Below, in pieces: positions 37,507 to 53,962 of a stretch of 64,000 nucleotides of DNA. The stretch's first letter is position 1. Each line of letters begins with the position of its first letter. The notes below the pieces were generated by a model that saw only the letters and a program-made list of their open reading frames with translations, was not told where the DNA came from and made no database searches. This DNA comes from Rhodothermales bacterium (lineage in GTDB: Bacteria; Bacteroidota; Rhodothermia; Rhodothermales; JAHQVL01): contig JAWKNW010000002.1 of NCBI GenBank assembly GCA_041391505.1, forward strand, positions 166,897-230,896, in the 5' to 3' direction. A program made the translations under genes and the position numbers.

Positions 37507-38727
37507 ATGATGCATCGCGCCGCCATCGCCCTGCTGCTCACGACTACCCTCACCGCCGGCGCCGCGCTGGCGCAACCCGGCCGCGCCCCGGCCCTCCCCG
37601 ACGGATCCGCGAAGGCGCTGGTCGAAGGCACCTGTACCGTCTGCCACACGACGGCCAACATCAGCCAGTCCGCCGGCTACGATACGCCCACCCGCTGGCG
37701 CGAGGTGTTCTCGTCGATGGTGACCCTGCCCGACGCCCAGGCGACGGCGATCGCGGAATACCTGGCCGAGCATTTCCCCGAAAAGCCCGGCCGCCGGCCG
37801 ACGCTGGTGGACGGCCCCATCGAGATCGAGATCAAGGAATACCTCACCCCCACGCTCGGGCAGCGCACCCGCGACCCCATCGAGGCGCCGGACGGCGCGA
37901 TCTGGTGGACGGGGATGTGGGCCAGCCTCGTCGGACGCATGGATCCGGTCACGGGCGAGATGAAGGAATACAAGCTCCCGCCGGAGGCCCGGCCGCACAG
38001 CATCGTGCCGGACCCGAACGGCATCATCTGGTACACCGGCAACAACAACGGCACCATCGGCCGGTTGGACCCCGCGACGGGCGCCATCACCGAATACAAG
38101 ACGAAAGCCCGCGATCCGCACACGCCTACGTTCCACCCGAACGGCAAACTCTACTTCACGTCGCAGGGCGCCGGCATGCTCGGCCGGCTCGATCCCCGCA
38201 CCGGAGAACTCATCGAGGTCGACACCGAACCCCGCCCCTACGGCATCCAGGTGGCGCAGGACGGTACGCTGTGGGTGGCCTACAACGGCACCAACAAGCT
38301 CGGCGCGCTCGATCCCGAGACGATGGAAGTCCGCTACTACACCGTCCCGAACGAGCGCTCGCGCATCCGCCGGCTGGGGCTGACGAGCGACGGGATGGTC
38401 TGGTACGGAAACTCGACGATGGGCAAGATCGGCCGGCTCAACCCGGCGACGGGCGAGATCAAGGAATGGGATTCCCCGAGCGGCCCCACGTCGCACCCGT
38501 ACGCGATGGCCGTGATCGACGACAAGATCTGGTACAACGAGTCCGGCATGCGCCCCGACGCGCTCGTGCGCTTCGACCCCGAGACCGAGTCGTTTCAGAG
38601 CTGGGCAATCCCGTCCGGCGTGGGGATCATCCGGAATATGTGGGTGACGCGGGATGGCCGGCTCCTCATCCACCAGAGCAGCTCCAACCGACTGGGGATC
38701 GTGACGATCCAGGATCTGGTGAATTGA
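37507..38727 (+). CDS. secreted cytochrome c (CxxCH) fused to a Vgb (streptogramin lyase)-like beta-propeller
   Basis: Signal peptide, then the CTVCH heme-c site. Repeated ...G.IW(Y/W)TG..NG.IGRLDP.TG...EY blades follow, typical of Vgb-like propellers. Confidence 0.6.
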   Translation: MMHRAAIALLLTTTLTAGAALAQPGRAPALPDGSAKALVEGTCTVCHTTANISQSAGYDTPTRWREVFSSMVTLPDAQATAIAEYLAEHFPEKPGRRPTLVDGPIEIEIKEYLTPTLGQRTRDPIEAPDGAIWWTGMWASLVGRMDPVTGEMKEYKLPPEARPHSIVPDPNGIIWYTGNNNGTIGRLDPATGAITEYKTKARDPHTPTFHPNGKLYFTSQGAGMLGRLDPRTGELIEVDTEPRPYGIQVAQDGTLWVAYNGTNKLGALDPETMEVRYYTVPNERSRIRRLGLTSDGMVWYGNSTMGKIGRLNPATGEIKEWDSPSGPTSHPYAMAVIDDKIWYNESGMRPDALVRFDPETESFQSWAIPSGVGIIRNMWVTRDGRLLIHQSSSNRLGIVTIQDLVN

Positions 38728-38756
38728 CGGCAATAGTCCACAAGCAAGGCTACTAA

Positions 38757-39887
38757 ATGGCTAATCCAAAGCACCTGGAAATTTTCCAACGAGGAGCTCT
38801 AGAGTGGAATAGCTGGAGAAAAGGTACTGCAGAGTTCCCCGATCTATCCCACCACAGACTGGATGCTAAAGATTACAGTGGATGGGACTTTAACTACTCT
38901 GACCTTTCTTTTATTGACGCGTCAGGGGTTACTTTTGATAAATGCAGTTTTCTGGCGGCAAGACTGTCTGGCGCAAACCTTAGCCATTGCAGCATTATAC
39001 CCACCTCTCTTGTCAACACAAATCTCGAACATTGCGATCTATCGCATGCAATAATAGTTGGCGGCAATTTTCAAGATGCAAAGTTTGAAGACACGATATT
39101 AATAAAGACCAAATTCCAAGAAGGCGTTTGGGCAAGTCCAAATCAAGTAGCAGGCAAAGCTAGTACTGCTTTTATTGATTGCGATCTCAGTAGAGCTCAA
39201 TATCTTGAGACTTGTATTTTTGAAGGAAACGTAATTATTGACAACAGAACTCTTAATCGATCAGTCGATTTATCCACTACCTTCCTTTTAAACGCTGGAC
39301 TTTCAAAGGAAGAGGTCAGAAGTTACTCACACGATGCCTCAATAACGATCATATTCAAAGAGAGTAGCTGGAGAGACTTGGTGCCAATAGAGCACGCGCT
39401 CAGAATCATGGCAATCTATGAGAAGGATTTTGACATCGTCCGATCTGATGATAGGCTCATACTGAAACTGCAGAACCAGAATCAGCTAAATCAAGCACTC
39501 GAAACCATCGGCGCCCTTCTATCGGCACTTCAGGCCTCAAACAGAGATCAATTGTCTTCGATCCGCGTAACGCAAAGAGGATTACCGGATGCGGTCACAT
39601 CAAATGATGAACTCGCCTTTCTCCTCACCTTTTTAATTGACCTATACGAACAGGACAACCATCCGCAAGCTCTACTAGAAGTGGCGGGGAAAGGCATACT
39701 AGAGTCATCTGCGATTGGAAAGTTATTCCAAGGCTTTATTGATTGGACACACTCTCGCCTGAATCCTGACCCTGCCCGCGAAAAGGTCCAACAGATCTAT
39801 AAACGATGCAGAAAATTGTACCCTGAGTTGGACGAATTCAGAAGATTATCGGACTCAAGCACAGATCCAAAGAAACTCAACAGATAG
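38757..39887 (+). CDS. pentapeptide-repeat protein with unknown ~180-aa C-terminal domain (paralog of the 42501 TIR protein)
   Basis: N-terminus LEIFQRGALEWNSWRK followed by A(D/N)LS-type pentapeptide units (LSGANLSHCSI, NLEHCDLSHAII...). The gene is low-GC (about 45% against about 67% in the gene 30 nt upstream, hand counts of 60-nt samples). Confidence 0.8.
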   Translation: MANPKHLEIFQRGALEWNSWRKGTAEFPDLSHHRLDAKDYSGWDFNYSDLSFIDASGVTFDKCSFLAARLSGANLSHCSIIPTSLVNTNLEHCDLSHAIIVGGNFQDAKFEDTILIKTKFQEGVWASPNQVAGKASTAFIDCDLSRAQYLETCIFEGNVIIDNRTLNRSVDLSTTFLLNAGLSKEEVRSYSHDASITIIFKESSWRDLVPIEHALRIMAIYEKDFDIVRSDDRLILKLQNQNQLNQALETIGALLSALQASNRDQLSSIRVTQRGLPDAVTSNDELAFLLTFLIDLYEQDNHPQALLEVAGKGILESSAIGKLFQGFIDWTHSRLNPDPAREKVQQIYKRCRKLYPELDEFRRLSDSSTDPKKLNR

Positions 39888-39918
39888 ATTCGACCTGAGG
39901 GAGTAAACCCAAATAAAA

Positions 39919-39958
39919 ACAAGAGTGTGAGTCTCTGACTGACCTTGCACACTCTTGT
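39919..39958 (+). terminator. 11-bp-stem hairpin downstream of the pentapeptide gene (no clear U-tract)
   Basis: acaagagtgtg (39919-29), 18-nt loop, cacactcttgt (39948-58). Confidence 0.3.
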
Positions 39959-40097
39959 GATCATGTCAAGCTGAGACTCTTAGCCCTTCTTCGTCGGGCT
40001 TTCTTACCAGGCATGACAATGCTTTGGCGTAGAGTCAGCGAAAACTCGGGGACGGGAGGGCTTCAGGATGGCGCCGAGTGGTGTAGTTTCTAAAACG

Positions 40098-40247
40098 TCG
40101 TGTCATCCCGACCGCCCTCCCGTGCCCACGGGAGGAAGTGGAGGGACCTCCTTAAGTCTGGCAAGTTGCCAACCAGAAGGAGGTCTCTCCGCTACCGTCC
40201 CGGCTTGCGCCGGTACGTACGGTCGGGATGACAACGCATTTTTTTAT
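40098..40247 (+). other. about 150-nt highly structured element (multi-hairpin closed by a 12-bp stem, followed by T7); candidate ncRNA or MITE-like element
   Basis: Outer stem gtcatcccgacc (40102-13) pairs with ggtcgggatgac (40221-32), then cgcattttttta. Inner hairpins are cctcccgt/acgggagg, ggagggacctcc/ggaggtctctcc and ccgg-cttgcg-ccgg. Confidence 0.3.
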
Positions 40248-40340
40248 TCACACCACTCGGCGGCAAACCCCATATCGGTGTTTATGCTGATGCTCAATTT
40301 TTCGATCGAACGCTAGCTTATTTCTGCTGAGTATGATGCG

Positions 40341-41096
40341 TCAATCCGGATACGTTTTCAGCCGGATGTTGCGGTACTCGACCTTCATCGGCGGGCCGAC
40401 GTGCACCTGGACGGCGATCTGGCCGTCGACCGGCCGGCTCGGGTCGTCGTCGACCACGACGCTCATCACCTGCCCGTTGATCAGGTGGATCATCGTGTTG
40501 CCGCGCACGATCAGGTGGACGGCGTTCCAGCCGTCCGTCACCGCCTTCGCGAGTTCGTCGTTGTCTCCGATCTCCGACACGAGGATCGGCGTGCGCCCAC
40601 CGACCACGTGCGTGAGTTGCCCGCGCAGGGCGAGGAAGAGCCGGCCTTTCTCCTCGTAGTTGTTGCCGGCGTACCGTAGCGGCCCGTCGATGTCGCACTG
40701 GTAGCCGCGCATCGAAAATGCGTTCTCCGGCGTGACGGGGTCCGGAATGACCACGCTTCGGTAGTTGACGCCGCTGTTGCCCCGGTCGGTGATCCTGTAC
40801 TCGAGTTTCAGCTCGAAGTCCTTCGGCTTTCCCCCCTGCCAGATGATGAAGGTGTTGCTCTTGACGAGCGTCTCCGGCGTGATCTCGCCGACGAGGGCGC
40901 CGTTTTCGACGCGCCAGTGGGTGTCGTTGCCTTTCCAGCCGTCGAGGTTCTCGCCGTTGAAGATGGAGACGAAGCCCGGCTCGTCGCCGGCGACGGGCTC
41001 GGGGCGGTCGCTCTGTTTGGGGACGAACGGCTCGGCCTGGCCGTAGGCGGCCATCGCGAAGAAAAGGAGGAACGGATAGGTGAGGAGGCGTTTCAT
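40341..41096 (-). CDS. DUF1080 (3-keto-disaccharide hydrolase-like) secreted protein
   Basis: MKRLLTYPFLLFFAMAAYGQ signal peptide. FNGENLDGWKGNDTHWRVENGALVG...NSGVNYR...GQIAVQVHVGPPMKVEYRNIRLK is the classic DUF1080 pattern. High GC. Confidence 0.75.
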   Translation of the reverse strand: MKRLLTYPFLLFFAMAAYGQAEPFVPKQSDRPEPVAGDEPGFVSIFNGENLDGWKGNDTHWRVENGALVGEITPETLVKSNTFIIWQGGKPKDFELKLEYRITDRGNSGVNYRSVVIPDPVTPENAFSMRGYQCDIDGPLRYAGNNYEEKGRLFLALRGQLTHVVGGRTPILVSEIGDNDELAKAVTDGWNAVHLIVRGNTMIHLINGQVMSVVVDDDPSRPVDGQIAVQVHVGPPMKVEYRNIRLKTYPD

Positions 41097-41297
41097 GGGG
41101 GTCTCCGGGTTACGGCGCTCCACATAACATACAGCAGCGGACCCGCAATGCAACGCCTGGGGTGGAATGAAGCGGGCACCGATACCCGCCGGCATGGTGT
41201 TCATCTACCCAATCCTGCTGTACCTTCAGGGCCTCACCGTGGATAAAGAGTCATCTTTATGCCTGCTTCCGGAAACCCTCAAATGCAAAACCGCCGC

Positions 41298-41960
41298 ATG
41301 ACCGAACTCCACTGCAAGGGCATCATCTTCGACCTGGACGGCGTGCTGATCGACTCCGACATCGTGTCCAACCGGCACTGGAAGCGCTGGGCCGAGCTGA
41401 ACCAGGTTTCGTTCGAGCACATCGCGGCCATTCACCACGGCCTGCCCCCCGTCCGCACCGTCGCCGCCGTGGCGCCGCATCTCGACGCGGCCGCCGAGTC
41501 GAAAGTATTCGAGGAATGGGCAGCCACCGACATGGAGGACCTGAAGGTCTACGACGGAGCGCGCGCGCTGCTCGCCGGCCTGCCGGCAGGTCGCTGGGGC
41601 ATCGCCACCAGTTCCTTCAGGGGGCTGACCCTTTCCCGACTCCAGTTTCTCGGTCTGCCGGTACCCGACGCGCTCGTGACGGTCGACGATGTAAAAAACG
41701 GCAAACCGAGTCCTGACCCCTACCTCCTCGCCGCCGAGAAGCTCGGCCTTCCCCCTGCGCAATGCCTCGTCATCGAGGACGCGCCGGCAGGGATCCGGGC
41801 GGCGAAGACGGCGGGGGCGCGGGTGATCGCCGTGGCTTCGACCAATGAAGTGCCGGCGCTGCACGAGGCGGATTTTGTGGTGGGGGACTTGCGCGACGTT
41901 GCAGCAAGGGAAACAGCTCGCGGGATTGAAGTTTTGTTGTCAGCGTTGCTAGCGACATAG
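41298..41960 (+). CDS. HAD-superfamily hydrolase (beta-phosphoglucomutase/sugar phosphatase-like)
   Basis: GIIFDLDGVLIDS (DxDG motif I), ATSS, GKPSPDPYL, VIEDAPAGIRAAKTAGARVIAV. The start at 41298 (MTELHC) is preferred, but 41259 is possible. Confidence 0.75.
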   Translation: MTELHCKGIIFDLDGVLIDSDIVSNRHWKRWAELNQVSFEHIAAIHHGLPPVRTVAAVAPHLDAAAESKVFEEWAATDMEDLKVYDGARALLAGLPAGRWGIATSSFRGLTLSRLQFLGLPVPDALVTVDDVKNGKPSPDPYLLAAEKLGLPPAQCLVIEDAPAGIRAAKTAGARVIAVASTNEVPALHEADFVVGDLRDVAARETARGIEVLLSALLAT

Positions 41961-41973
41961 TGTCATCAACTGC

Positions 41974-42003
41974 CGAATACTGGACTGATATGTCCAGTAT
42001 TCG
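41974..42003 (+). terminator. perfect 12-bp-stem hairpin 14 nt after the HAD stop
   Basis: cgaatactggac, tgatat, gtccagtattcg. It lies exactly at the high-GC to low-GC transition. Confidence 0.4.
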
Positions 42004-42500
42004 AATACCGTTACAATACGACGATCCGAATTTCCAATTTCGTAAAGTTAACAGTGCTGGCCCTTGTCAGCTTATCATCTGAACGACGACATCATAGGCA
42101 CCTGATACGGGGTGCAGAGCAGCATCTCCCCGTAGTCACAAAAGGCTCTAAGGATTCAAGAGATGGGATAGTCACGAAGCGGTTGCTCTACTTTGGGTTA
42201 AGTGGGCACCGTTCAGCCTGACCCTTTCAGTAGTAGTGCATCATGATTTGACGCGCGGTCAAATCACATTTTGCTTTATCCAGAGCGGGATGTTTTCGCG
42301 CACCCCTATCTATGCGACACTGAATAATCCGCAACAACACCATGCACAATGCAATAGACGTCCATTGATAGATTCGAGCAATCATTGTTGACTTCGATCA
42401 TTTGCAAGATCTTGGACAACAATAGCTCATGCGTTCAAAATCCGCATTTATGATTAGTACCGAATGTAGACCGGAATTCTTAAAAGAATAATGAGGCTAT

Positions 42501-43556
42501 ATGCTACAGGCGATACCAGAACACGTTGAACTCCTCAACAGAGGGCCCGAGGCATGGAATGGCTGGAGACAAAATAATCAGACACAACCAGATCTACGTT
42601 TTACTGATTTGTCTGGACGAGATTTATCCGGATACAATCTTGAAAATGTATATCTCGAAGGCTGCAATCTAACCGAAGCAAGACTTGTTTCCCAGAACCT
42701 ACATCAGTCCCAGTTTCAATCAGCCCAACTTCTTCGGACGGACTTCACCGGCTCAGATCTTTCATATGCAGAGTTCTCACGCGCCTATCTCCATGGAGCC
42801 AAATTGGCTTCATGCAATCTAAATAATGCAGATCTCGAGGGGGCAATATTCTTGTTCAGCGATCTACGAGAATCACATCTTGACAAAGCCAGATTCGGCG
42901 ATACTATCTTATTCTCAAGTGACCTGTCCGGATGCAAAAGTCTCGACTCCATTATCCACTATTCGCCTAGCTCAGTCGACCACGGTACACTAAGTCTCTC
43001 TGGAGCACTGCCGCTGGCCTTTCTCAGAGGCGTGGGATTCCCGGACAATTACATTGATTATATCCCTGCATTATTCCATAACGCAATCCAGTTCTACTCG
43101 TGTTTCATCAGCCACTCAACAGAAGATCACGAGTTCGCGCGAAGACTTTATGCGGACTTACAAGACCAAGGCGTTAGATGCTATTATGCCCCCGTGGACA
43201 TGAAAGGCGGCAAGAAAACTCATGAGCAGATTGACCAAGGCATCAAGATGCACGACAAACTGGTATTAATCCTGAGTCCAGCGAGTATCACAAGCAAGTG
43301 GGTCGAAAGAGAAATACGCCGAGCGAGGCATCAGGAGGAGGAAGACGGAAAGAGACGACTTTTCCCTATTAGCTTAGTGCCATATAAAATGTTAAAAAAC
43401 TGGAAGCTCTTCGACTCTGACCTTGTCTTAGATCTCGCAGCCGAAATTCGCGAATATTACATACCTGATTTCACCGAATGGAAGTCACATGATAAGTACC
43501 ACAATGAATTCCAAAAACTGCTCAGGGACTTAAGACCTGATGAGGAGTCGATTTAA
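42501..43556 (+). CDS. pentapeptide-repeat protein with C-terminal TIR domain
   Basis: N-terminus VELLNRGPEAWNGWRQ followed by pentapeptide units (DLSGRDLSGYNLENVYLEGCNLTEARL...). The C-terminus is FYSCFISHSTEDHEFARRLYADLQDQGVRCYYAPVDMKGGKKTHEQI...LVLILSPASITSKWVEREI, a TIR_2-type core that includes the W..E putative catalytic Glu. Low GC. Confidence 0.85.
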   Translation: MLQAIPEHVELLNRGPEAWNGWRQNNQTQPDLRFTDLSGRDLSGYNLENVYLEGCNLTEARLVSQNLHQSQFQSAQLLRTDFTGSDLSYAEFSRAYLHGAKLASCNLNNADLEGAIFLFSDLRESHLDKARFGDTILFSSDLSGCKSLDSIIHYSPSSVDHGTLSLSGALPLAFLRGVGFPDNYIDYIPALFHNAIQFYSCFISHSTEDHEFARRLYADLQDQGVRCYYAPVDMKGGKKTHEQIDQGIKMHDKLVLILSPASITSKWVEREIRRARHQEEEDGKRRLFPISLVPYKMLKNWKLFDSDLVLDLAAEIREYYIPDFTEWKSHDKYHNEFQKLLRDLRPDEESI

Positions 43557-43750
43557 AATAAAGACTACACAAAGGGCATAAAATCACATCAAATTCAGTG
43601 TAGTCTAACTTCAATCGATATCACTCGCTCACACTTCCCGTGCACATGCACAGAAATTGCATTGCTCTTCGACGCATCCCATAAATGACTTACCACGCTA
43701 GGCATATTGGTAGGACCTTGGCATTTCCGGCGAGATGGGTGCACGCAAAC

Positions 43751-43790
43751 GCAAAAAAAACCCGAAGGGTCTTTGAGACCCTTCGGGTTT
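43751..43790 (-). terminator. strong rho-independent terminator (minus-strand orientation), inferred original tRNA-Lys terminator
   Basis: aaacccgaagggtc, tttga, gacccttcgggttt (43758-43790), with 8 A upstream on the plus strand (8 U on the minus strand). It lies directly downstream (in the minus sense) of the 14-nt tRNA 3-prime fragment at 43799-43812. Confidence 0.7.
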
Positions 43791-43798
43791 GAAATGCA

Positions 43799-43812
43799 GT
43801 GCCTCCGCAAGG
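43799..43812. repeat. attL-side direct repeat (copy of the tRNA-Lys 3-prime segment)
   Basis: gtgcctccgcaagg is identical to, and in the same orientation as, 59773-59786 inside tRNA-Lys. Flanking bases are partly similar (cag upstream, ct downstream). Confidence 0.6.
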
Positions 43813-44048
43813 GCTTACCCTGATTTACGCACGTCTGCGCCACTCCACACCTGTCCCGCTGAAACCCTTCGAAATCAAGGGCTTGCGGCAACACATCGCC
43901 TCACAGGATCAAATTTCGAAGGTCAATTCCCCGTAGGCTGCGCTCACATTACAGCCTACATTCTTCCACGCAAATATTTTTGGGAACATCCATTTGTTCG
44001 ACAAGGGAACAAGAAACCAATCCTTATAGAACCGCAGCCTTTGAACTT

Positions 44049-45047
44049 ATGTCGAGATTAACTGCAGAGTACTCAATTGACATCCCCAGTCCCTGCCTGA
44101 TACAGTGGCCGATAGATGAGACGCCTACGATTGACGCAACGATAGACGGCTTCTCTGTACGAATTGTACTGCAACCCGTAAAAGACTGGCGATTGACACA
44201 CAAGGAAGAGAACTACTATGTCACTAGCATTGACTCCCTTGAAATATTCGTTTCGCGCGAAGAAAACGAATCACCACCTCCTTCACGATTGAATGCAAAG
44301 GGAGGAACTGATTTTTCAGACCAATACCCTTTTATCAATGAACGTGCGACTCCTTATCGTGACATCGCTGTAAAGGCTGCCAATCGCCTGTTGAATTTCT
44401 ACAAATATCATCTCCATGCCCCATTGATAGAGCCTATTCCGGAGGGACACAATGGCTTTGCAAACCCTAGATGGTTCATCGATGATGACGAACAGATAGC
44501 TGGTAATAAGGTAACCTTCACAGTCGAATATGTAGCAGGGTTACATGGAGAGTTGAGAACGTATAAATTCAGGCCTGCAGATGAGTCTATTCTTCAGAAG
44601 TACCTGACCAATGTGCCGGACCATAGTCTAGCAGATGAGCTCTTGGCCGATGCGAAATCTGCATGGTTCGAGCACAATTATCGGAGAGCCGTGCTCGAAC
44701 TTGCCATTTGCGTGGAAGTCATGGTGAAGCGGAAATATTTTGAGAAGGCCTCACCAGCGGGAGCAGCATTTGATTACCTAGAGGACAAATCACAGATCAG
44801 AGTGCGTGTGTTGGATCTCATTGATAAAATAGCTTCTGAAGCTTTCAATCGCAGTTTCAAGAATGAGCACAAGAATGAATACAATCATATAGATGAGTTA
44901 TTCAGATGTCGCAACAAGATCGCTCATAGAGGAGAGTTGAAGTTTCGAAATGAAGCTGGTCAAACCGTTGAGGCCGATTCCGACATGGTGGCTCTTTGGT
45001 GGGAAGCTGCCTATTGCTTGAAGGACTGGCTCCATGAGTTATCCTAG
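44049..45047 (+). CDS. HEPN-domain protein (Rx4H), putative RNase; N-terminal ~200 aa unknown
   Basis: The C-terminal helical region reads LADELLADAKSAWFEHNYRRAVLELAICVEVMVKR...IDELFRCRNKIAHRGEL, where RNKIAH fits the HEPN Rx4-6H motif. The ATG at 44049 is preferred. Low GC. Confidence 0.55.
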   Translation: MSRLTAEYSIDIPSPCLIQWPIDETPTIDATIDGFSVRIVLQPVKDWRLTHKEENYYVTSIDSLEIFVSREENESPPPSRLNAKGGTDFSDQYPFINERATPYRDIAVKAANRLLNFYKYHLHAPLIEPIPEGHNGFANPRWFIDDDEQIAGNKVTFTVEYVAGLHGELRTYKFRPADESILQKYLTNVPDHSLADELLADAKSAWFEHNYRRAVLELAICVEVMVKRKYFEKASPAGAAFDYLEDKSQIRVRVLDLIDKIASEAFNRSFKNEHKNEYNHIDELFRCRNKIAHRGELKFRNEAGQTVEADSDMVALWWEAAYCLKDWLHELS

Positions 45048-45263
45048 CATTAAACTGGAGCATGTGGAGGCCATGCATCCGGGGAGGGGGGTACAAATCT
45101 CCAGCACTACCAGCCTCGGGACCGGCGGAGGCAGTCAAATTTTTACGCCGTCAGGTTTCCAGAATCGGTTTTCGCGGCCCAGGGCTCCCCCGTGAATCGC
45201 CGTTTTTCGTGCGGCCAGACGCGATCCACGCGATCCGGGGCCGATTCAAAACCACATTTTTTC

Positions 45264-45938
45264 ATGCCAAAACACCCCAAAAACTATATGAAAAAGCAGC
45301 AACTTTCGACCCTCATCCTGGACGTTCGCGAGCATCCGGCCGTCAAAACGGTGATCGATCGCCTGCGCCGGCTGAAGCAGGACATCCAGCGCCTCAACGA
45401 GATGGTGACCGAACGCCAGGCCCGGGCCACCGAGGCCCGCAAGACCCTGGGGCGCCTCGAGCTCGACGCGGCCATGGGGCGCGACGTCGACGCGGCGGCC
45501 CGCCAAGCGGCCATCCGCGACCTGCAGGCGGCCGAGGCCGACCTCGACGTGGTCACCGAGGAGGCCCAGCGCCGGGGCGGCATCTCGGTCGACGTCGCTG
45601 CCGAGATCGGGCCGGCGATCGAGGAGGCCGGCCGGGAGGCCACCGAGCTCCTGGATCCGGTGCTCCGCGCTCTGACCCAGCAGTACACCGACGGCCTGGC
45701 AATGATGGCATCAGCGGGGCGCGATCTCCACGAGATCTACGGCGCGCTCAGTCACAGCATGCAGGCGACCCATCGGAAGTACGGGGTGCACCAGAACATC
45801 CGCACCCCGCACGACACGCCCGTGCTCGCGATTGGCACCCTCGGCTACGAGGGCGTGTTGCAAGTGATGGAGAATCACCTCCGGACGCTGCGCGCGATGG
45901 GGTACACGGCCACCCAGACGGAGGAGAGCCATGTCTGA
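45264..45938 (+). CDS. hypothetical phage-like protein (coiled-coil N-terminus; possible scaffold-like)
   Basis: 224 aa, high GC. The stop overlaps the start of the prohead protease gene (45931). No family recognised. Confidence 0.5.
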   Translation: MPKHPKNYMKKQQLSTLILDVREHPAVKTVIDRLRRLKQDIQRLNEMVTERQARATEARKTLGRLELDAAMGRDVDAAARQAAIRDLQAAEADLDVVTEEAQRRGGISVDVAAEIGPAIEEAGREATELLDPVLRALTQQYTDGLAMMASAGRDLHEIYGALSHSMQATHRKYGVHQNIRTPHDTPVLAIGTLGYEGVLQVMENHLRTLRAMGYTATQTEESHV

Positions 45939-46605
45939 GAAAGACCTCGAACGGCGCTATTATACCGTCCAACTCCGGGGCGGCCGTGGCCAGAAGACGA
46001 TCACTGGCTATGCGGCCGTGTTCAACGAGCGGAGCCAGGACCTGGGCGGCTTCATGGAGGTGATCCGCCCGGGCGCCTTCCGCCAGGCGATCCTGACGTC
46101 CGACGTCCGCGCGTTGTGGAATCACGACCAGAAGCTGGTCCTGGGGCGCACGAAGGCGGGCACCCTGAAGCTGGCCGAGGACGATCGCGGTCTCCGCATC
46201 GAGCTCGTGCCGCCGGAGAGCCCGATCGGCCAGAACGCGGTCGAGGCCATCGGCCGGGGCGATGTCGATCAGATGTCCTTCGCGTTCTCGGTGGGTAAGG
46301 ATGCCTGGACGAGCCTCGAGGACGGCCGCCAGCTGCGCGAGATCCTGAGCATCAAGCAGCTCTTCGACGTCTCGCCGGTCACGTTTCCCGCATACGCCCA
46401 GACCGACGTCTCCGTCTCTGTACGCAACTTGATGCGGCGCATCCAGACCGATCCCGCGTACGCGGAGCGACTGCGGCGCCTCGAGGCGGCGGAGCGCGGC
46501 AGCGCCTGGGACGGAGCGCCGCGCCGGCCGGCGATGTCGGACGCGCAGAAGATAGCGCAGATGCGGCGCCGGCTCGCCCTGGCCGAGCGCGGCATCGACC
46601 TTTGA
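45931..46605 (+). CDS. HK97-family phage prohead protease
   Basis: ITGYAAVFNERSQDLGGFMEVIRPGAFRQAI....VRALWNHDQKLVLGRT..GTLKL.EDDRGL...GDVDQMSFAF...DVSPVTFPAY, the Peptidase_S78/U35 pattern. Confidence 0.8.
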   Translation: MSEKDLERRYYTVQLRGGRGQKTITGYAAVFNERSQDLGGFMEVIRPGAFRQAILTSDVRALWNHDQKLVLGRTKAGTLKLAEDDRGLRIELVPPESPIGQNAVEAIGRGDVDQMSFAFSVGKDAWTSLEDGRQLREILSIKQLFDVSPVTFPAYAQTDVSVSVRNLMRRIQTDPAYAERLRRLEAAERGSAWDGAPRRPAMSDAQKIAQMRRRLALAERGIDL

Positions 46606-47114
46606 CGGAGACAACCATGGGAAGACGAGGCCCGGCGCCGAAGCCGACGAAACTCAAACTTCTGCAGGGGACGTACCGGAAGGACCGCGCGAACACGAAC
46701 GAGCCGGAGCCCGAGGCGGCCGTGCCCAAGTGCCCCTCCTTTCTCAAGGGCGAGGCGCGCCGGGAATGGCGCCGGATCGTGCCCGAGCTGCAGGAGATGG
46801 GTCTACTCTCCCGGATCGATCGCGCGGCGCTGTGCGGCTATTGCGCGAGTTGGGAGACCCTGGTGGAATCAGACAAGGTGATCAGCGCCGAGGGCAGGAC
46901 GATCGTGAACGCGAAGGGCCAACTTGTTGCGCACCCGGAGATGGCCATCCGGAGCCGAGCGATGGACCAACTGCGCGGCTACATGGTCGAGTTCGGGATG
47001 ACGCCGGCGAGCCGGGCGCGGATCCACGTGCCGGAAAAGGGCAATCTCGCGAATCCGTTCGCCGACATCCTGAAGGACGCGGACGAGAAGGGTCCGGGGC
47101 CGGAGGCGCGATGA
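46602..47114 (+). CDS. phage terminase small subunit, P27 family
   Basis: GRRGPAPKPTKLKLLQGTYRKDR...P.FL...AR.EW.RIVPEL..MGLLSRIDRAAL..YC..W.......I...G........G....P......R....QLR.Y..EFGMTPASR matches the P27 TerS family. Confidence 0.8.
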   Translation: MTETTMGRRGPAPKPTKLKLLQGTYRKDRANTNEPEPEAAVPKCPSFLKGEARREWRRIVPELQEMGLLSRIDRAALCGYCASWETLVESDKVISAEGRTIVNAKGQLVAHPEMAIRSRAMDQLRGYMVEFGMTPASRARIHVPEKGNLANPFADILKDADEKGPGPEAR

Positions 47115-47584
47115 TTTACAGGTTCGGGGCGCCGGAGGCGGTCTACCGCGCGGTGGAGGACATGGCCTGGTGGGTGACGCTCGATCTGGGGCTGAGAGAG
47201 GCGGGCGATCCGCTCCCGATTCCGATTGCGTTCTGGAAGCGGGAGCGGATCGCCGACGTCGTGCGGAGGCAAGGGGGACAAGGCAAGGGAACGATCGGGC
47301 TCTACTGGCCCGACGAGGACCGGATAACGATCTGCGACGACCTCACCCCACGGGAGGCGGCCACGGTCACGGCGCACGAGCTGCGGCATGCCTGGCAGTA
47401 TCGGCACTGGAACGCGGTGTCGATCGCGGAGACGAGCGCGATCGAGCGCGACGCGCGGGCCTACGAGAGGCAGGCTGTGGGGCGATTCTACCAGGCGGAG
47501 CACCGCGAGAAGCCGGCTACAATCTGGTCGAGAGTGTGCGATTGGATGGTGGCGGCCCCTCAGATAGTCAACCTAATCCCCTAA
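47111..47584 (+). CDS. HExxH-motif protein (putative zinc metallopeptidase), coupled to terS
   Basis: 157 aa. TAHELRHAWQY contains HExxH. The ATG at 47111 overlaps the terS stop (ATGA). Confidence 0.5.
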   Translation: MIYRFGAPEAVYRAVEDMAWWVTLDLGLREAGDPLPIPIAFWKRERIADVVRRQGGQGKGTIGLYWPDEDRITICDDLTPREAATVTAHELRHAWQYRHWNAVSIAETSAIERDARAYERQAVGRFYQAEHREKPATIWSRVCDWMVAAPQIVNLIP

Positions 47585-48245
47585 CCATGGTCGAAGATAG
47601 CGGACAAAGGACTACAAGCAGCTTAATCACCTCCCGCAATAGCACGCCACAACTCTCCCCGTACCTCACTGCATCGATTAGAACTGCTGCAGCAAGTTGA
47701 AAAAGAGTTAGATGGAACATGATCATCATCCATGTCGCTTTTCGAGGTCGCTCATTCTTGAGTGCTTCGAAGTATTCATGCCTGAAATCAGCCAGGGCCG
47801 GGTCGAAGGCAAGCACGCGTGTTTTTTCGGGGAGTAGAAAATTTGCTATGCGCCATGCCAACTGACCAGGGGGCTTATGCAGGCGTTTCGGCTCCGTGGT
47901 CGATGGTTGCCCACTAGCCGAGATGCGGAACGATGCGGCATAGTGATCTAGAGAATAGAGGAAGAAAGCCTTAAACCCCTGGGACCGCTCAGGAAGGTTA
48001 TCCTTTTCGAGCTCATGAGCCAGTTCCGCGCGCATCTCAACCAAGCCCGTGAGTACAGGCCTGATAGGATCAAACTCTTCAAGGGTCATTTTCCCGCTGC
48101 TGTAGAGGGCGTATGCATCAAATGCACACACAAGAGCTCTTGATACGAACTCATCATCGTTGTCGATGCATGACAGCGAAGGGTCCTGATTAGTGAGTGA
48201 GCCGATTTCGGCAATCAGTTCTTCCTTTGAGGGCAGTGTCTTCAT
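47568..48245 (-). CDS. hypothetical 225-aa protein with C-terminal TM segment(s), PadR-coupled
   Basis: The ATG at 48245 overlaps the PadR stop (ATGA). The segment LLPEKTRVLAFDPALADFRHEYFEA followed by the hydrophobic WMMIMFHLTLFQLAAAVLI resembles the prefix domain often encoded after PadR genes. Low GC. Confidence 0.5.
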   Translation of the reverse strand: MKTLPSKEELIAEIGSLTNQDPSLSCIDNDDEFVSRALVCAFDAYALYSSGKMTLEEFDPIRPVLTGLVEMRAELAHELEKDNLPERSQGFKAFFLYSLDHYAASFRISASGQPSTTEPKRLHKPPGQLAWRIANFLLPEKTRVLAFDPALADFRHEYFEALKNERPRKATWMMIMFHLTLFQLAAAVLIDAVRYGESCGVLLREVIKLLVVLCPLSSTMVRGLG

Positions 48246-48544
48246 AGTCCGGCAAAGTGAGCGTTCAGCGCCTGAAGTGATGCCATCCAGTGAGTTAAAA
48301 CGCGTGAACCGTCGGCAGTCAGCTGGTAAAGACGTCGTGCTGGACCCATCTCTCCTGGTTTCGATTCAGCCAACCAAGAACGGACAAACCCTTTTTTCTC
48401 AAGACGACTCAATGTGACATAGATAGTACCACGCTTTAGATGTCCCCCAGAATCATCGACAAGTTCCAGACCGTAAGCTTTCTGCTTTGTCGTAAGTAGC
48501 TGAAGGATGATAGCCTCTTTAGGGCTGAGTGAATGTGATTTCAT
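48242..48544 (-). CDS. PadR-family transcriptional regulator
   Basis: MKSHSLSPKEAIILQLLTTKQKAYGLELVDDSGGHLKRGTIYVTLSRLEKKGFVRSW......GPARRLYQLTADG, the winged-helix PadR pattern. The ATG at 48544 is preferred. Confidence 0.8.
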   Translation of the reverse strand: MKSHSLSPKEAIILQLLTTKQKAYGLELVDDSGGHLKRGTIYVTLSRLEKKGFVRSWLAESKPGEMGPARRLYQLTADGSRVLTHWMASLQALNAHFAGL

Positions 48545-48731
48545 GGCGGCGTTGACTCGTTTCGGGATAAGGGTAATATATCTTATTTTGTAAGACATGT
48601 CAAGAGGCAATAGTCCTCCAACACTGACACGCTGAAAAAATGCCCGTCGGGCGGGCTAACGTCAAAGGCGCATCTGGTGTATCTTGGTGATAAGTACCTC
48701 AACAGGGTGAATTACAATTGCCGAGCGAACA

Positions 48732-49535
48732 ATGAAGCTGCATAAGTGGGAAGAGGAAATCTTCTTCAGCACCGTCCGCATAACAATCGAAGACAGTCAT
48801 GGAGAAGATCTTTCGGTCGGCACCGGCTTCATTATGGGCGTCCCGATCACAAATGAGAAGGGCGACGATAAAGATACTGTCGTGCTCGTTTCCTGCCGGC
48901 ATGTCTTTGAAGAAGCCAATAAGCCGATCAGCCTTAAATTTCACCAGGCGAAGCCAGACAAGAGTGGCCCGCAACTCGGCAGCACACCCATACCTCTAAC
49001 CGAGAATTTCGGCGACCACTATTTGCCTCACCCGAACCCCAAAATAGATCTCGCTTGCATAGGTGCCGTTGGCTTGCGATTCCGCGATGACATCTTTTTT
49101 CGATACGTCGGCCCCGGCATCTTGGCAGACCTCACAGAAGATGATATCTATGCGGGCAAAGAGGTGTTGTTCGTTGGTTATCCGGATGGGCAGTATGATT
49201 GGAGCCACAATCTCCCCATCATGAGGTTTGGACACATCGCGACAGTACCAAGCGTCGATTTTCGTGGCGAGCAGGCCTTTCTAATTGATGCACCAGTGTT
49301 TGAAGGATCGAGTGGCAGCGCTGTCTTTAGCATCATCGACGGCAAATATAGGCTCGTTGGTGTAGTGACCGATACGCTGTTCAAGGAGGACAAAGACCGA
49401 TCCAGCGGCCTAAATATCTCATACAGACATTACCTGCACTTGGGGCTGGTACTAAAGTCGACTCTGATCTATGAGTTGCTTGAACATCTCGTGAAAGAGC
49501 AATTTCCTGGCTTTAGTCTCGGAGTTCCGAGATAA
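48732..49535 (+). CDS. cytoplasmic trypsin-like serine protease (Trypsin_2/S1-like)
   Basis: No signal peptide. Candidate triad: His in VLVSCRHVF, Asp in KIDLACIG, Ser in FEGSSGSAVF. GTGFIMG is an N-terminal beta-barrel motif. It is divergent from the PadR operon. Low GC. Confidence 0.7.
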   Translation: MKLHKWEEEIFFSTVRITIEDSHGEDLSVGTGFIMGVPITNEKGDDKDTVVLVSCRHVFEEANKPISLKFHQAKPDKSGPQLGSTPIPLTENFGDHYLPHPNPKIDLACIGAVGLRFRDDIFFRYVGPGILADLTEDDIYAGKEVLFVGYPDGQYDWSHNLPIMRFGHIATVPSVDFRGEQAFLIDAPVFEGSSGSAVFSIIDGKYRLVGVVTDTLFKEDKDRSSGLNISYRHYLHLGLVLKSTLIYELLEHLVKEQFPGFSLGVPR

Positions 49536-49628
49536 AGATCATGGTCTATTTTTGAGTTCTTCGCTGAAGGTCGCGGGGCTTTTTCGTTCGGACACACTCG
49601 AAAGTGGGGCCATACGGTCATGATGCCG

Positions 49629-50282
49629 TTAAGACGGTCGCCTTACTCCATGACCCTTTCCGTTATCCCAAATCAACCCGTCACGGATATCGATCAAACT
49701 ATTCATGTTTTCCTCCTGCACTGTACGCAGAAGCGCGAAGGTGCGCACTTTGGCTCCGGGATAGACTTGCTTGATGAGGCGAGCACACGCTAAAAGGGTG
49801 CTTCCTCTGGTCACGATATCGTCAACGATCGTGATCGAATCGGAGAAGAGCAGTGTCTCGAGGACAGACATGGTCTCCATATGGGACGCAACCGTTGGCC
49901 GTTCATCTCCCCTGCCCTTCGCAAATGAGGAAGATTTGGGGACTGCATAATCCCTTTTCAGGAGCAGGAGCATCTCGGATCCGACGCCATTTTCAATGAG
50001 CGCCTGGCAGAGTAGTTTTGCTGGCCAGACTGTGTCATCGGAAATGAGCGGAGTACTGCGAGGTACAGGTACGAGCACCGTGCCGGCGTGCAGAAACGTG
50101 CTCAGCGGTGGCTCGTGAATATGTTTCCGAATCGATTGGGCAACGATTCTCAGCTCCTCTATTTTTCCAAACTTGACCGCACTCATCGCCTTGCGCGATC
50201 GCTCAATAAGATATGATTCTCCCCTCGGGGAATAAGCCAGATATGACGCGTATTCAATGCTAGAGCGAGAACGGTTCTGCAT
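49629..50282 (-). CDS. ComF-like phosphoribosyltransferase-domain protein (ShosT-like)
   Basis: SITIVDDIVTRGSTLLA is the PRPP-binding loop of type I PRTases, and VLVPVPRS is a ComF-family motif. It overlaps the upstream DprA-like gene by 23 nt. Confidence 0.7.
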   Translation of the reverse strand: MQNRSRSSIEYASYLAYSPRGESYLIERSRKAMSAVKFGKIEELRIVAQSIRKHIHEPPLSTFLHAGTVLVPVPRSTPLISDDTVWPAKLLCQALIENGVGSEMLLLLKRDYAVPKSSSFAKGRGDERPTVASHMETMSVLETLLFSDSITIVDDIVTRGSTLLACARLIKQVYPGAKVRTFALLRTVQEENMNSLIDIRDGLIWDNGKGHGVRRPS

Positions 50283-50943
50283 CGGTTCGCTCCGGCATCT
50301 CGGCTAGAATGTGGTCCATGTTGCCCCTGGAGAGCATGATCGCGCCGTACTTCATCATCTCCTTCGGCCAGTTCAATTCAGGGTTGGTCAGGACGGACTC
50401 CATTATGAGGAGCTGGCGGCCAAGCCTGAGTGTCTCTTTGGCCTGGTGAAGTGTGCCGCTGTTCTCCGTTGCCTCGACAATGACGGTCGCATCGGTCAAA
50501 AGCGACATCGTCAGATTTCGCATCGGGAAATTGGACCGCTTCATCGGATATCCGATCGGGAACTGAGAAACCGCCAGGTGATCGCGCATGATGCGCTCCT
50601 GTAATGATCGATTCTTAGGCGGATAGAATTCGTCCAGCGGAGTGCCAAGAACAGCTATCGTATTCCCTCCCTCACTGATCGCGGTCTCGTGTGCTGCAGT
50701 ATCAATCCCCTCCGCCAGACCACTCACCACGGTGATTCCGTGACGGACGAGTGCCTTGGTGACGAGTTCGGCGCGCTTTAGCCCTTCGGGTGTCGCCTTC
50801 CTGGAGCCAACAACGGAAATCCGAGATCCTCTCCTACACAGATCGATATCGCCCGCAGCATACAGCACAGTGAGCTGGCGCTTTGACTCCTCCTTATTGA
50901 GTGTCCCCAGCAACTCAGCGATCGTGAATTCCATCGTTTCCAT
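50260..50943 (-). CDS. DprA/Smf-like Rossmann (SLOG) protein (ShosA-like)
   Basis: ISVVGSRKATPEGLKRAELVTKALVRHGITVVSGLAEGIDTAAHETAISEGGNTIAVLGTPLDEFYPPKNRSLQERI is the DprA core signature. There are no C-terminal DprA winged-helix or N-terminal SAM extensions (227 aa). Confidence 0.8.
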   Translation of the reverse strand: METMEFTIAELLGTLNKEESKRQLTVLYAAGDIDLCRRGSRISVVGSRKATPEGLKRAELVTKALVRHGITVVSGLAEGIDTAAHETAISEGGNTIAVLGTPLDEFYPPKNRSLQERIMRDHLAVSQFPIGYPMKRSNFPMRNLTMSLLTDATVIVEATENSGTLHQAKETLRLGRQLLIMESVLTNPELNWPKEMMKYGAIMLSRGNMDHILAEMPERTDAEPFSL

Positions 50944-51335
50944 CGTCGTGCACCAGAAGTAGATTTCTTGTGTCGGTCATTGAGAGGAGCGGGCTCCTGG
51001 TGGTCTCAATGGCCTGTGGAGAGCAAGGATCAAGCTCCTGCACGGCAGTGCCAACCATATGTCATACATATATTTGACGTATGGCACATGTTTTTGTTAC
51101 CGGGGTAATATCGTCCATCGATTGATTGGAATACAGGGGGCGGATGCCTTGATTTTGTGAAGTGTTCAATTTGCGCCAAAGGTTGATTCCGCCGTGTGAA
51201 CATGCCGGCCGGGCCGTCGCGCACATACGTGTTTGCGCGCGAACATAGTCAGCCCATTGATGCCGGCAGCCAGGTTTCGGGGTCGCGTCCACAATAACGG
51301 CACATTGACAATCTCGTCCGATTCACCGTGCACAT

Positions 51336-51373
51336 CGGAAAAAGCAAAAGCGCGCCGAACCTCGCCGGCGCGC
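51336..51373 (-). terminator. rho-independent terminator ending the five-gene minus-strand operon
   Basis: gcgcgccg (51350-57), 8-nt loop, cggcgcgc (51366-73). On the minus strand it is followed by cttttgcttttt. It lies 19 nt after the stop at 51392. Confidence 0.6.
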
Positions 51374-51391
51374 CCTTGCGCTGAATCGGAT

Positions 51392-51592
51392 TCACCCATT
51401 GCACGCACATCCAGCTCCTGTCCTGCAGATCGTATCCTTGTCGATGCATGAGTCTCCGCAGGCCTTCCCCTTGCGGCAGACTTTGCAGCATGCACCTCCC
51501 TCCAAGGTATCGCAAGCAGGAAGTACACTCATGGACGCGAAAGCAATCAGGAGGAATGCCCCGATCCTGATGCATGATTTGACTTTGCGCAT
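51392..51592 (-). CDS. small Cys-rich lipoprotein (66 aa)
   Basis: MRKVKSCIRIGAFLLIAFASMSVLPAC lipobox, then GGACCKVCRKGKACGDSCIDKDTICRTGAGCACNG (8 Cys in about 31 residues). Confidence 0.6.
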   Translation of the reverse strand: MRKVKSCIRIGAFLLIAFASMSVLPACDTLEGGACCKVCRKGKACGDSCIDKDTICRTGAGCACNG

Positions 51593-51679
51593 GACGCTCT
51601 CCCAACGTGGACGGCAACATGCGCTGTTGACCACCTTTCTCGTCGTCGCGTGAGTGCCGGCGCCCGAAAAGGCGCATTC

Positions 51680-52006
51680 CTACTTCCGCTTCTTCCGTGC
51701 CCGGTAGGCCGCCTGGCGGCAGGCATCGGAGCAGTACCTCCCCTGCCCCGCTGGATTCGAGCACTTCACCCAGGCGCACACCTTGCGATCGTTCGGAGCG
51801 TACGTGCCCGCCCGCTTTCTCTCCGCGTCCGCCAGGCGCCGGCATTCGGCGTGATACCGCTTCTGCTTGCCCGTGAGCGGCTGGCCGCACCGGACGCATG
51901 GATAGGCTGTCGTACGCTTGCCAGCCCGGGCCGGCGGCGCGGCCACGACGGCTGCGGATCCTTGGGACTTACGGGCCCCCTCTTCAGGGCTCCCCTGCCC
52001 CATCAC
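51680..52006 (-). CDS. zinc-ribbon-like basic protein (108 aa)
   Basis: CVRCGQPL...YHAECRR and CAWVKCSNP...YCSDACRQAAYRARKKRK. The start overlaps the upstream gene stop (ATGA). Confidence 0.5.
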   Translation of the reverse strand: MMGQGSPEEGARKSQGSAAVVAAPPARAGKRTTAYPCVRCGQPLTGKQKRYHAECRRLADAERKRAGTYAPNDRKVCAWVKCSNPAGQGRYCSDACRQAAYRARKKRK

Positions 52007-52791
52007 TCCCCCGGCTCACCCGGCGTGACGTCGATGACGCTGTGATCGATCTCCCCGCCCTTGCTTCCACTATCGCCCGAATGCGGCGGCAGCTGGAGCG
52101 ATCCGAGGCCGAACCACTTCGATGTCAGCTTCGCCGCGCGCTCTACCGGCACACCGATGGACTTGAGCAGATACGGAAGCTCGATGCGCGCCGACTTCTT
52201 GAGCAGACTCCGAGTCCGGCGCGCCATCGACTCCTTCCAGAGCAGATCCATCCGCTGGTGCTGCACGTGCGCCTTGAGCCGGCGGATGTTGCGCCGGTTG
52301 TCGAGCGCCAGCTGCTTCCTGTCCACGACCTCGAGGCGGCCCTCCACCTCCGTCATGTGCTCGGCGCCCGTAGCCTTCCGATCGGCGTTCGTGATCGGAT
52401 CCACGGCCTGGATGAGGAACGCGAAGAGGAACATGCACGGTGCCGACGTCGGCATGATCCAGGCATAGTAGGTGGAGGTCCACCCCCCTGCCCCGCCCTG
52501 CGCCTGAGCAAGGATGCCGGCCGTCGCGAAGAACATGGCGAACAGCCCGGCCCAGAGCGAGACCCGAAGCATCGGGCCGATCAGGCGTCCGTCCTTCCAG
52601 TGCTGGTATACCGCCCAGAGCATGAGCTCCACCGAGAGGATACCGACCAGCACGAAGACGAAGAAGACGACGTTGCCGCTGTGAGTGAAGGCGTTCACCG
52701 TGTTGTGTGCGCCGGAGTACAGGAGGAACAGCAGATGGATCTTATCCAGCGCCGGCATCTCCCGGTTAAGTGTTGCTTTTTCCTGTGACAT
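52003..52791 (-). CDS. hypothetical membrane protein (4-5 TM N-terminal, coiled-coil C-terminal)
   Basis: 262 aa with hydrophobic segments (IHLLFLLYSGAH, VVFFVFVLVGILSVELMLWAV, VSLWAGLFAMFFATAGIL, CMFLFAFLIQAV), then a charged helical region. Confidence 0.55.
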   Translation of the reverse strand: MSQEKATLNREMPALDKIHLLFLLYSGAHNTVNAFTHSGNVVFFVFVLVGILSVELMLWAVYQHWKDGRLIGPMLRVSLWAGLFAMFFATAGILAQAQGGAGGWTSTYYAWIMPTSAPCMFLFAFLIQAVDPITNADRKATGAEHMTEVEGRLEVVDRKQLALDNRRNIRRLKAHVQHQRMDLLWKESMARRTRSLLKKSARIELPYLLKSIGVPVERAAKLTSKWFGLGSLQLPPHSGDSGSKGGEIDHSVIDVTPGEPGE

Positions 52792-52894
52792 GCTTCGAAA
52801 TGTGTTACAGTTTTCTTAGGTGTCGGGAAACTGTCACGCCTGGGCGCCATGGGGCGGGACGCGCAGGCGTTACGGTCGACATCGGGAAGGGGAG

Positions 52895-53371: not shown

Positions 53372-53417
53372 ATCGGGATACCTGTCGGAATTCGGGACGT
53401 GGAAGAGGGAGGGCGGC

Positions 53418-53792: not shown

Positions 53793-53905
53793 GAAGGTCT
53801 CCAAGTTGGGTTAACAGCTTGATTGGGGACAATTGGCCGTTCGGTGTTCTCAGCACCGGGCGGCCTTTTTCGTTTGAATGCCGTATTATACCAGGATTTT
53901 CTTTA

Positions 53906-53928
53906 CTTGTCAAGAATTACTTGACAAG
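53906..53928. promoter_or_regulatory. perfect 9-bp inverted repeat (candidate operator) in the divergent switch region
   Basis: cttgtcaag, aatta, cttgacaag. It contains TTGACA and lies 35 nt upstream of the XRE ATG (53963) and about 115 nt from the divergent minus-strand operon start. Confidence 0.5.
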
Positions 53929-53962
53929 AGTACAAGATAATTTTAACTTGGTATCAATTTTC

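Follow-up and report, generated by a model that had tools for sequence, protein, structure and literature searches.

From bacteria to plants and animals, innate immunity makes common use of TIR domains, and how diverse sensor parts switch them on is still an active question. Here we describe PRP-TIR, a gene for a pentapeptide-repeat protein (PRP) fused to a TIR domain, at positions 42501-43556 (plus strand) of a 64,000-nucleotide (nt) stretch of the genome of a Rhodothermales bacterium (assembly GCA_041391505.1, contig JAWKNW010000002.1); this whole stretch is the window that was analysed, and all coordinates refer to it. The gene lies in a low-GC islet beside a tRNA-Lys integration site and encodes 351 amino acids (aa). 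Its product belongs to a large family of single-polypeptide PRP-TIR proteins that is uncharacterised, has thousands of members, is abundant in soil Acidobacteriota and couples a well-understood enzymatic effector to a pentapeptide beta-helix. To our knowledge the only well-documented activities of this beta-helix are DNA mimicry and peptide binding, and we know of almost no experimental phage biology in Acidobacteriota.

Results

The open reading frame (ORF) is intact, starts with ATG and is preceded by a GAGG Shine-Dalgarno (SD) sequence 7-10 nt 5' of the start codon. Its product has four parts: it begins with a helical cap, continues with about 24 pentapeptide repeats and a helical linker of 48 aa, and ends in a TIR_2 domain. 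Both Pfam Pentapeptide (79.7 bits against a cut-off of 20.2, E 1e-22, aa ~30-150) and TIR_2 (77.9 bits against 28, E 1e-21, aa 202-293) score far above cut-off, and Pentapeptide_4 (54.1 bits against 38) and TIR (33.6 bits against 21.3) match as well. An AlphaFold2 (AF2) model built from 30 homologs, with a mean predicted local distance difference test score (pLDDT) of 86, contains a beta-helix and an alpha/beta TIR part. The top Foldseek matches of the model are pentapeptide proteins (E 4e-9), which make up nearly all of the first 49; the exceptions are chains of NleL, which contains a pentapeptide beta-helix domain. After the pentapeptide proteins comes the TIR of TLR15 (E 1e-4). The pentapeptide-TIR fusion proposed by a first-pass annotation, made from the DNA letters alone, is thus borne out by Pfam and by AF2 with Foldseek, and the linker and TIR strings that it quoted (LPLAFLRGVGFPDNYIDY, FISHSTEDHEFA and SKWVEREI) are all found in the translation.

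All four parts are encoded on the plus strand. The cap (aa 1-27, 42501-42581) carries the motif EHVELLNRGPEAWNGWR and is modelled as two helices at aa 6-13 and 16-25 (pLDDT 86-96). The repeats (aa 28-150, 42582-42950) form a quadrilateral right-handed beta-helix with a pLDDT of ~96 over aa 30-160; their presence had been called correctly, and their length is ~120-125 aa (~24 pentapeptides) instead of the ~150 aa first given. The linker (HYSPSSVDHGTLSLSGALPLAFLRGVGFPDNYIDYIPAL, 42951-43094) is almost gap-free in the family and has S157, T163, S167, F174, L175, G177 and G179 invariant in a 30-member alignment. In the model it comprises three short helices (aa 161-191) and leads into a flexible tether (aa 192-198), with the pLDDT dropping to ~55 at aa 190-200. 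The TIR domain (aa 199-345, 43095-43535), AbTir/TcpB-like by Pfam TIR_2 and by sequence matches in the Protein Data Bank (PDB), consists in the model of alternating strands and helices in a flavodoxin-like alpha/beta fold (pLDDT 65-92).

The WxxxE motif in helix alphaC of the TIR domain is intact, with W267 at 43299-43301 and E271 at 43311-43313. Both residues are invariant in 30 full-length homologs and also in 57 TIRs of the same clade that have other heads, and within SKWVEREI they align with the W and E of AbTIR DWTNYELDG and TcpB QWPARELDG. The aligned Glu is the catalytic residue of bacterial TIR NADases, and bacterial TIRs that have it cleave or cyclise nicotinamide adenine dinucleotide (NAD+) upon TIR self-association. 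The Glu expected for NAD-cleaving TIRs, on whose conservation the first-pass annotation had made its proposal depend, is therefore retained in the window and conserved across the 30 homologs and the 57 clade TIRs. By profile, motif and fold, the domain is a predicted member of the NADase-competent class.

Profile and sequence searches of the PDB give TcpB/BtpA (4lzp, 4lqc), BtTIR (7uxr) and AbTIR (7uwg, 8g83) as the nearest solved TIR sequences (E 8e-9 to 2e-7), with TIR-STING also among the nearest. Alignment with AbTir, TcpB and BtTIR matches the betaA FISH(S/A) motif, the Gly of the BB loop and the W...E residues; unlike PRP-TIR, these proteins have coiled-coil or other N-terminal parts and no beta-helix, and TIR core identity is ~30%. 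That the closest solved sequences are TcpB, BtTIR and AbTIR could point to a secreted or injected effector directed against other cells, as with Brucella TcpB/BtpA or AbTir, and pentapeptide repeats do occur in the type III effectors PipB/PipB2, to which there are weak NCBIfam matches. The PipB match, however, reaches 40 bits against a cut-off of 274, the protein lacks a signal peptide, secretion-system genes are absent from its surroundings, no secretion-related neighbour is conserved, and the hosts are free-living soil bacteria, which makes such an effector extremely improbable.

A search of 5.8 billion protein clusters with PRP-TIR gave 2,647 matching clusters at E<=1e-5. Nearly all of the best 120 of these (40-51% identity, >90% coverage) are full-length pentapeptide plus TIR proteins. 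When one genome was scanned per species, relatives turned out to occupy at least 493 loci. Among the matches listed, these are mostly from Acidobacteriota (Terriglobia, Pyrinomonadaceae, Bryobacteraceae), with fewer in Verrucomicrobiota, Planctomycetota, Nitrospirota, Chloroflexota and Deltaproteobacteria; the hosts of the family are free-living soil bacteria. Databases label such proteins just 'TIR domain/Pentapeptide repeats'. We did not find the architecture as a characterised system in the literature searched or in PADLOC, which matches the TIR part only, in agreement with the first-pass annotation, which knew of no characterised defence system with it.

Within the family, 45 positions are invariant in the 30-member alignment, including W19 and N20 of the cap, F174, L175, G177 and G179 of the linker, F202, I203 and S204 of betaA, G237 and K239 of the BB loop, and W267 and E271. 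A C-terminal EIREY-IPDF-W-H block is also conserved, and none of the residues shared by all of the other 29 members is changed in the window protein. Mean pairwise identity is 70% in the TIR core (6% gaps), 64% in the remaining TIR and 55% in the linker. In the repeats it is 44%, a figure raised by the repeat consensus, with 49% gaps, and the repeat domain ranges from 102 to 237 aa, or 20 to 47 repeats. It is usually acidic, with a median charge of -7.5 (range +1 to -18) and a pI of 4.6, and the window protein is typical with a net charge of -7 and a pI of 4.76. Sensor-effector proteins typically combine a catalytic tail that is conserved with a head that varies, and PRP-TIR would then be one of them.

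When the TIR part (aa 196-351) was used by itself as the query of an HMMER search run without filters, 13,353 representative clusters matched at E<=1e-3, and 611 did so at E<=1e-30. About 81 of the best 150 relatives have pentapeptide heads, and part of the remainder are fragments. Other heads among the 150 are TPR (4), CHAT (2), LuxR-type HTH (2), caspase, protein kinase, KAP NTPase, PAS and a second TIR, and the W...E motif is kept in all clade TIRs among them with non-pentapeptide heads. The prokaryotic 'conflict systems' of Kaur et al. draw on partner domains of this kind, and these authors list pentapeptide repeats among the superstructure-forming modules (PMC7159879, PMC8195603).

The same kind of head also occurs with other tails. 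A second protein of this type (376 aa, 38757-39887, plus strand), recognised by Pfam, pairwise comparison and GC profile, is encoded 2.6 kb upstream of PRP-TIR in its own 1.3-kb islet of 44% GC, which begins 30 bp past the stop codon of a Vgb-lyase-like gene. Its head shares the WNSWR cap, the repeats and an FLxxxG-type linker with PRP-TIR (27% identity over 190 aa, E 1e-15), and the nearest relatives of this head include PRP-TIR proteins. The helical C-terminal half of ~190 aa has no homolog in the 5.8 billion protein clusters and no match in Pfam, PADLOC, NCBIfam or PHROG, and a single-sequence fold of the product is uninformative (pLDDT 34). This gene is the most unusual thing in the region and, because it pairs the same head with an orphan tail, it supports the view of one head wired to different tails. 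Neither this protein nor the large family of the fusion had been noticed in the first-pass annotation. Three homologs (P0122, P0124 and P0126) have the same cap and pentapeptide head with another C-terminal domain (GRFGGGG...IIFDFERP...DLSGPSVPQEL) that has no Pfam match and is another tail on the same kind of head.

At the locus, PRP-TIR stands out by composition, with a GC content of 45.8% and a third-codon-position GC (GC3) of 47% in a genome of 66% GC, in which host genes have 64-66% GC and a GC3 of 79-89%. Upstream lies a 540-bp spacer of 44% GC (41961-42500), delimited by the GC profile, with a promoter-like site found by promoter scan at 42413-42441 ahead of the SD and no conserved or recognisable ORF. 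A perfect 12-bp hairpin at 41974-42003 (arms 41974-41985 and 41992-42003, 6-nt loop; inverted-repeat check) begins 14 nt past the stop codon of a HAD hydrolase gene and forms the left edge of the islet, as first described. Downstream of PRP-TIR, an intrinsic terminator on the minus strand (43758-43790, 15-bp perfect stem plus T-run) has the orientation of the tRNA and is the displaced tRNA-Lys terminator. Eight nt beyond it and 243 bp from PRP-TIR starts GTGCCTCCGCAAGG (43799-43812), a 14-bp copy of the tRNA-Lys 3' end. This string occurs exactly twice in the window, the second time at 59773-59786 within the tRNA-Lys(CTT) gene itself (59771-59846, minus strand), which an integrase gene (58345-59694) adjoins. 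A chance origin of the repeat was rejected, as shuffled sequences give an expectation of none and a tRNA-oriented terminator adjoins it.

The two copies are the attachment (att) junctions of a 16-kb satellite-like integrative element (43813-59772). Since the copy at 43799-43812 is the far junction of this element, PRP-TIR lies just outside it at the same hotspot, where the first-pass annotation had also placed it. Before the arrival of the element, PRP-TIR stood tail-to-tail with tRNA-Lys, ~240 bp apart. This adjacency to a tRNA-Lys hotspot fits an accessory, mobile gene, and PRP-TIR may have survived as cargo from an element that integrated earlier. The element itself encodes a tyrosine integrase beside the tRNA, a DUF3987 protein, a small terminase, an S78 prohead protease, the Shosta system (ShosT 49629-50282 and ShosA 50260-50943, both minus strand) and a trypsin-like PDC-S45 candidate (48732-49535). 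Its att-distal cargo gene is a HEPN-like ORF (43980-45047, plus strand) of 45% GC with the Rx4H motif RNKIAH and a weak RiboL-PSP-HEPN match. The GC and GC3 of this gene are the same as those of both pentapeptide genes, and the three may have a common donor. A single operon of PRP-TIR and the HEPN-like gene is ruled out by the att copy and the strong opposite-strand terminator between them. The earlier description of a ~1.8-kb low-GC stretch bounded by hairpin and terminator holds on the left only: low GC extends to ~45100, and because the HEPN-like gene is equally low in GC, it is the att copy and the terminator, and not a change in composition, that define the right edge.

No convincing direct repeats or target-site duplications flank either low-GC islet, and in Rfam the sole match over 38000-46000 is a sub-threshold NsiR1, which is the terminator hairpin itself. 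The HAD protein, used to look for synteny of the islet, has a best match of 47% identity in the genome collection, which leaves the host without a near neighbour there. An isolated low-GC islet at a tRNA hotspot that has no integrase of its own, behind a 540-bp spacer with no recognisable gene, could also be the leftover of a decayed mobile element, silent or useless in its host. Against such decay stand the intact frame, the retention of all family-invariant residues, the good SD and the promoter-like site, and we regard it as very unlikely.

For the genomic neighbourhoods, we sampled 80 further loci together with the window and clustered ORFs of at least 70 aa within 5 kb. No partner is conserved: the largest cluster besides the gene itself and its antisense frame is present in at most 7 of the 81 loci, and there is no conserved small-ORF family (antitoxin-like; 30-130 aa, within 900 bp) beside PRP-TIR. 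Nor is there a ThsA-like or STING-like partner in the window, as first noted. The 150 immediate neighbours match 125 Pfam families, the commonest being PRP-TIR copies (5), UvrD-type helicases (3) and SmpB, resolvase and Fic (2 each), and the 147 second neighbours match 188 families, mostly metabolic. Two of the seven contexts with proper gene calls are plain housekeeping (L161, L166), one is an islet of small hypothetical genes (L163), three have toxin-antitoxin genes nearby (L164, L165, L167) and one is a prophage end (L168). PRP-TIR is thus not visibly concentrated in defence islands, and the enrichment there for which the first-pass annotation had proposed to look was not seen; housekeeping genes predominate among the neighbours, toxin-antitoxin pairs and smpB appear now and then, and a prophage end appears once.

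The closest homolog (P0002, at the prophage end) is encoded directly after a prophage integrase, preceded by ERF, YqaJ and DUF4224 genes, and lies 84 bp before tRNA-His/Arg/Pro. At another locus (L077) the gene lies 527 bp from tRNA-Lys(CTT), tail-to-tail as in the ancestral state of the window. As a trait of the family, tRNA adjacency was rejected, with 6 of 80 loci having a tRNA within 5 kb, which is about background; the window and these two loci are anecdotal. A drop of 6 or more GC points relative to the flanks marks the gene at 14 other loci, in an islet of 1.0-3.1 kb that is often the gene alone, and tandem PRP-TIR paralogs occur in ~9 loci. The lack of a partner, the islets, the plasmid and prophage contexts and the tandem copies together indicate a gene that is self-sufficient and mobile.

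Three observations concern individual loci of the family. On the Skermanella rosea plasmid pSR-5 (L169; NZ_CP086116.1, 4853-8609), PRP-TIR is split by two IS256 transposase genes, with another pentapeptide protein and a recombinase nearby. At five Acidobacteriaceae loci (L004, L024, L053, L054, L164), two tandem same-strand paralogs with different TIR subtypes lie ~1.4 kb downstream of smpB, with tails of '...WECFDAD...EIREY' and '...DDAVM...AWAADIR'; these paralogs may form a heteromeric pair, and in L164 one of them is split into separate pentapeptide and TIR ORFs. Just upstream of PRP-TIR in nine Acidobacteriaceae loci (L006, L007, L019, L032, L038, L039, L051, L067, L078) there recurs a short sequence with the translation MRDVQGSPLPRDLACFRDATDD...; it looks like a repeat of conserved non-coding DNA rather than a gene.

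Several known systems share parts of this architecture. Single-protein TIR systems, including TIR-TPR and TIR-only proteins, protect Escherichia coli from phage and require the TIR active site (Wang et al. 2024, PMC11350192). PRP-TIR resembles them in being one polypeptide whose TIR has the active-site Glu and which has no partner gene, and in those systems the non-TIR part, where present, presumably senses a phage component. It differs in its pentapeptide head, which none of them has, and in occurring mainly in Acidobacteriota; beyond the TIR no sequence relationship to them was seen, no test aimed at one being made. The best matches in the defence and phage libraries are PADLOC PDC-S66 and phrog_15646, with a C-terminal TIR in a ~290-aa protein. 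PRP-TIR is not a PDC-S66 member because the match is confined to the TIR part, at profile positions 147-240 of 282, whereas the 146 N-terminal positions do not match the pentapeptide head. The TIR effectors of CBASS, Pycsar and type III CRISPR systems are likewise set apart, since PRP-TIR has no STING, SAVED or CARF nucleotide-sensing domain in Pfam or PADLOC and the SAVED_TIR model matches aa 199-290 only.

Thoeris ThsB also has a TIR with the catalytic Glu, and there are weak ThsB_TIR and PADLOC ThsB matches (22.8 bits against a cut-off of 21.2; E 2.5e-11), with NCBIfam Thoeris models far under cut-off (22.6 bits against 220). AbTir-type TIRs make isomers of cyclic ADP-ribose (cADPR), and PRP-TIR could similarly be a signal generator of the ThsB kind, making a messenger of the cADPR type for an effector whose gene lies in another part of the genome. 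No ThsA-like gene is adjacent in the window and no partner is conserved across the 80 loci, however, and the single-gene low-GC islets argue that the gene acts alone after transfer; this role is accordingly quite improbable. Since it has no ThsA, PRP-TIR is not a Thoeris system.

A precedent for pentapeptide repeats in immunity is HalA, the defence effector of Hailong, which joins such repeats to a potassium-channel domain (PMC13586616, PMC13276650). As a membrane channel, HalA acts with the nucleotidyltransferase HalB, whereas PRP-TIR has no membrane segment, channel or HalB and is therefore not Hailong.

Discussion

From its sequence, PRP-TIR is most likely a self-contained immune or suicide switch, and we put the probability that it is a horizontally acquired, single-gene immune TIR NADase at roughly 0.5. 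It may be a single-polypeptide sensor-effector in which the repeat rod would be the sensing or scaffolding part and the TIR the effector. In the resting state the protein would be inactive; an invader-derived ligand would bind the rod and bring TIR domains together, and the assembled TIRs would hydrolyse or cyclise NAD+, so that NAD+ depletion would arrest the infected cell as in abortive infection. A possible ligand is a DNA-binding protein of a phage, which would take the acidic rod for DNA.

This last idea follows the first-pass suggestion that a DNA-mimic domain would gate the TIR, with which an acidic repeat domain (net charge -7, pI 4.8, family median -7.5) is compatible. The DNA mimics Qnr, MfpA and AlbG have the same fold and an acidic surface, to which the acidic repeats may correspond. 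Unlike them, the PRP-TIR family varies from 20 to 47 repeats, and its scores with the Qnr and MfpA models are far under cut-off (36.3 bits against 240 and 22.3 against 360), so that PRP-TIR does not belong to the Qnr/MfpA group of topoisomerase protectors. In its full form, the acidic rod would be a DNA decoy, crowded by phage DNA-binding proteins (polymerase, topoisomerase, nuclease, anti-restriction) that assemble the NADase TIRs, with the length of the rod setting the number bound. We consider this unlikely. If true, it would make PRP-TIR a one-protein 'bait-and-kill' sensor of an undescribed kind, and in the protein encoded at 38757-39887 this sensor would be linked to a new effector.

Several findings weigh against an immune NADase. 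Among the 297 nearest neighbours there is no enrichment of defence genes, in a comparison made without a proper background control, and most are metabolic or housekeeping; PADLOC on the neighbours yields only TIR paralogs and UvrD-like helicase look-alikes. The full fusion is absent from sequenced phages, which carry free-standing pentapeptide proteins only. The pLDDT of the TIR part is as low as 65 and the predicted template modelling score (pTM) is 0.64, so that the geometry between domains is not fixed by the model. For DNA mimicry the evidence is charge, which by itself does not demonstrate it, the Qnr and MfpA models failing by a wide margin. In most Acidobacteriaceae the gene has a host-like GC, and in some it occupies a lineage-conserved spot near smpB.

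Host-like GC and the smpB spot would also fit a resident cellular function, either NAD-linked stress or developmental signalling or a modulator of DNA enzymes with the TIR as an assembly domain. Many homologs combine host-like GC with housekeeping neighbours, the locus downstream of smpB is conserved within its lineage, and the pentapeptide proteins HetL, Qnr and MfpA have regulatory or protective roles, although their NCBIfam matches here are well under cut-off. Patchy, non-syntenic locations, low-GC single-gene islets and carriage by prophage and plasmid argue otherwise, as do the tandem diversifying paralogs, the variable head on a conserved catalytic TIR and a TIR clade whose heads are typical of conflict systems. 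A resident, non-immune function thus appears rather unlikely, and the immune TIR NADase remains the preferred reading.

PRP-TIR is a very abundant candidate whose putative defence role is not backed by genomic context. If the family is immune, it would add a new sensor class for single-gene TIR systems; if it is not, a resident function linked to NAD in a major phylum of soil bacteria would be indicated. With 351 aa, the protein would be a compact model for TIR activation.

Additional observations

Two repeat structures elsewhere in the region were recorded. Between the first low-GC islet and a 3-keto-disaccharide hydrolase gene, nested inverted repeats at 40048-40265 have outer arms of 46 nt (76%), inner arms of 31 nt (77%) and a 14-nt pair. 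They have no Rfam match and may be a miniature inverted-repeat transposable element (MITE), a repetitive extragenic palindromic (REP)-like element or a structured RNA. Six head-to-tail copies of a 19-nt unit, TGCCGGRCTCRRKGAGGNT, lie at 60387-60498, immediately upstream of the tRNA-Lys gene region.

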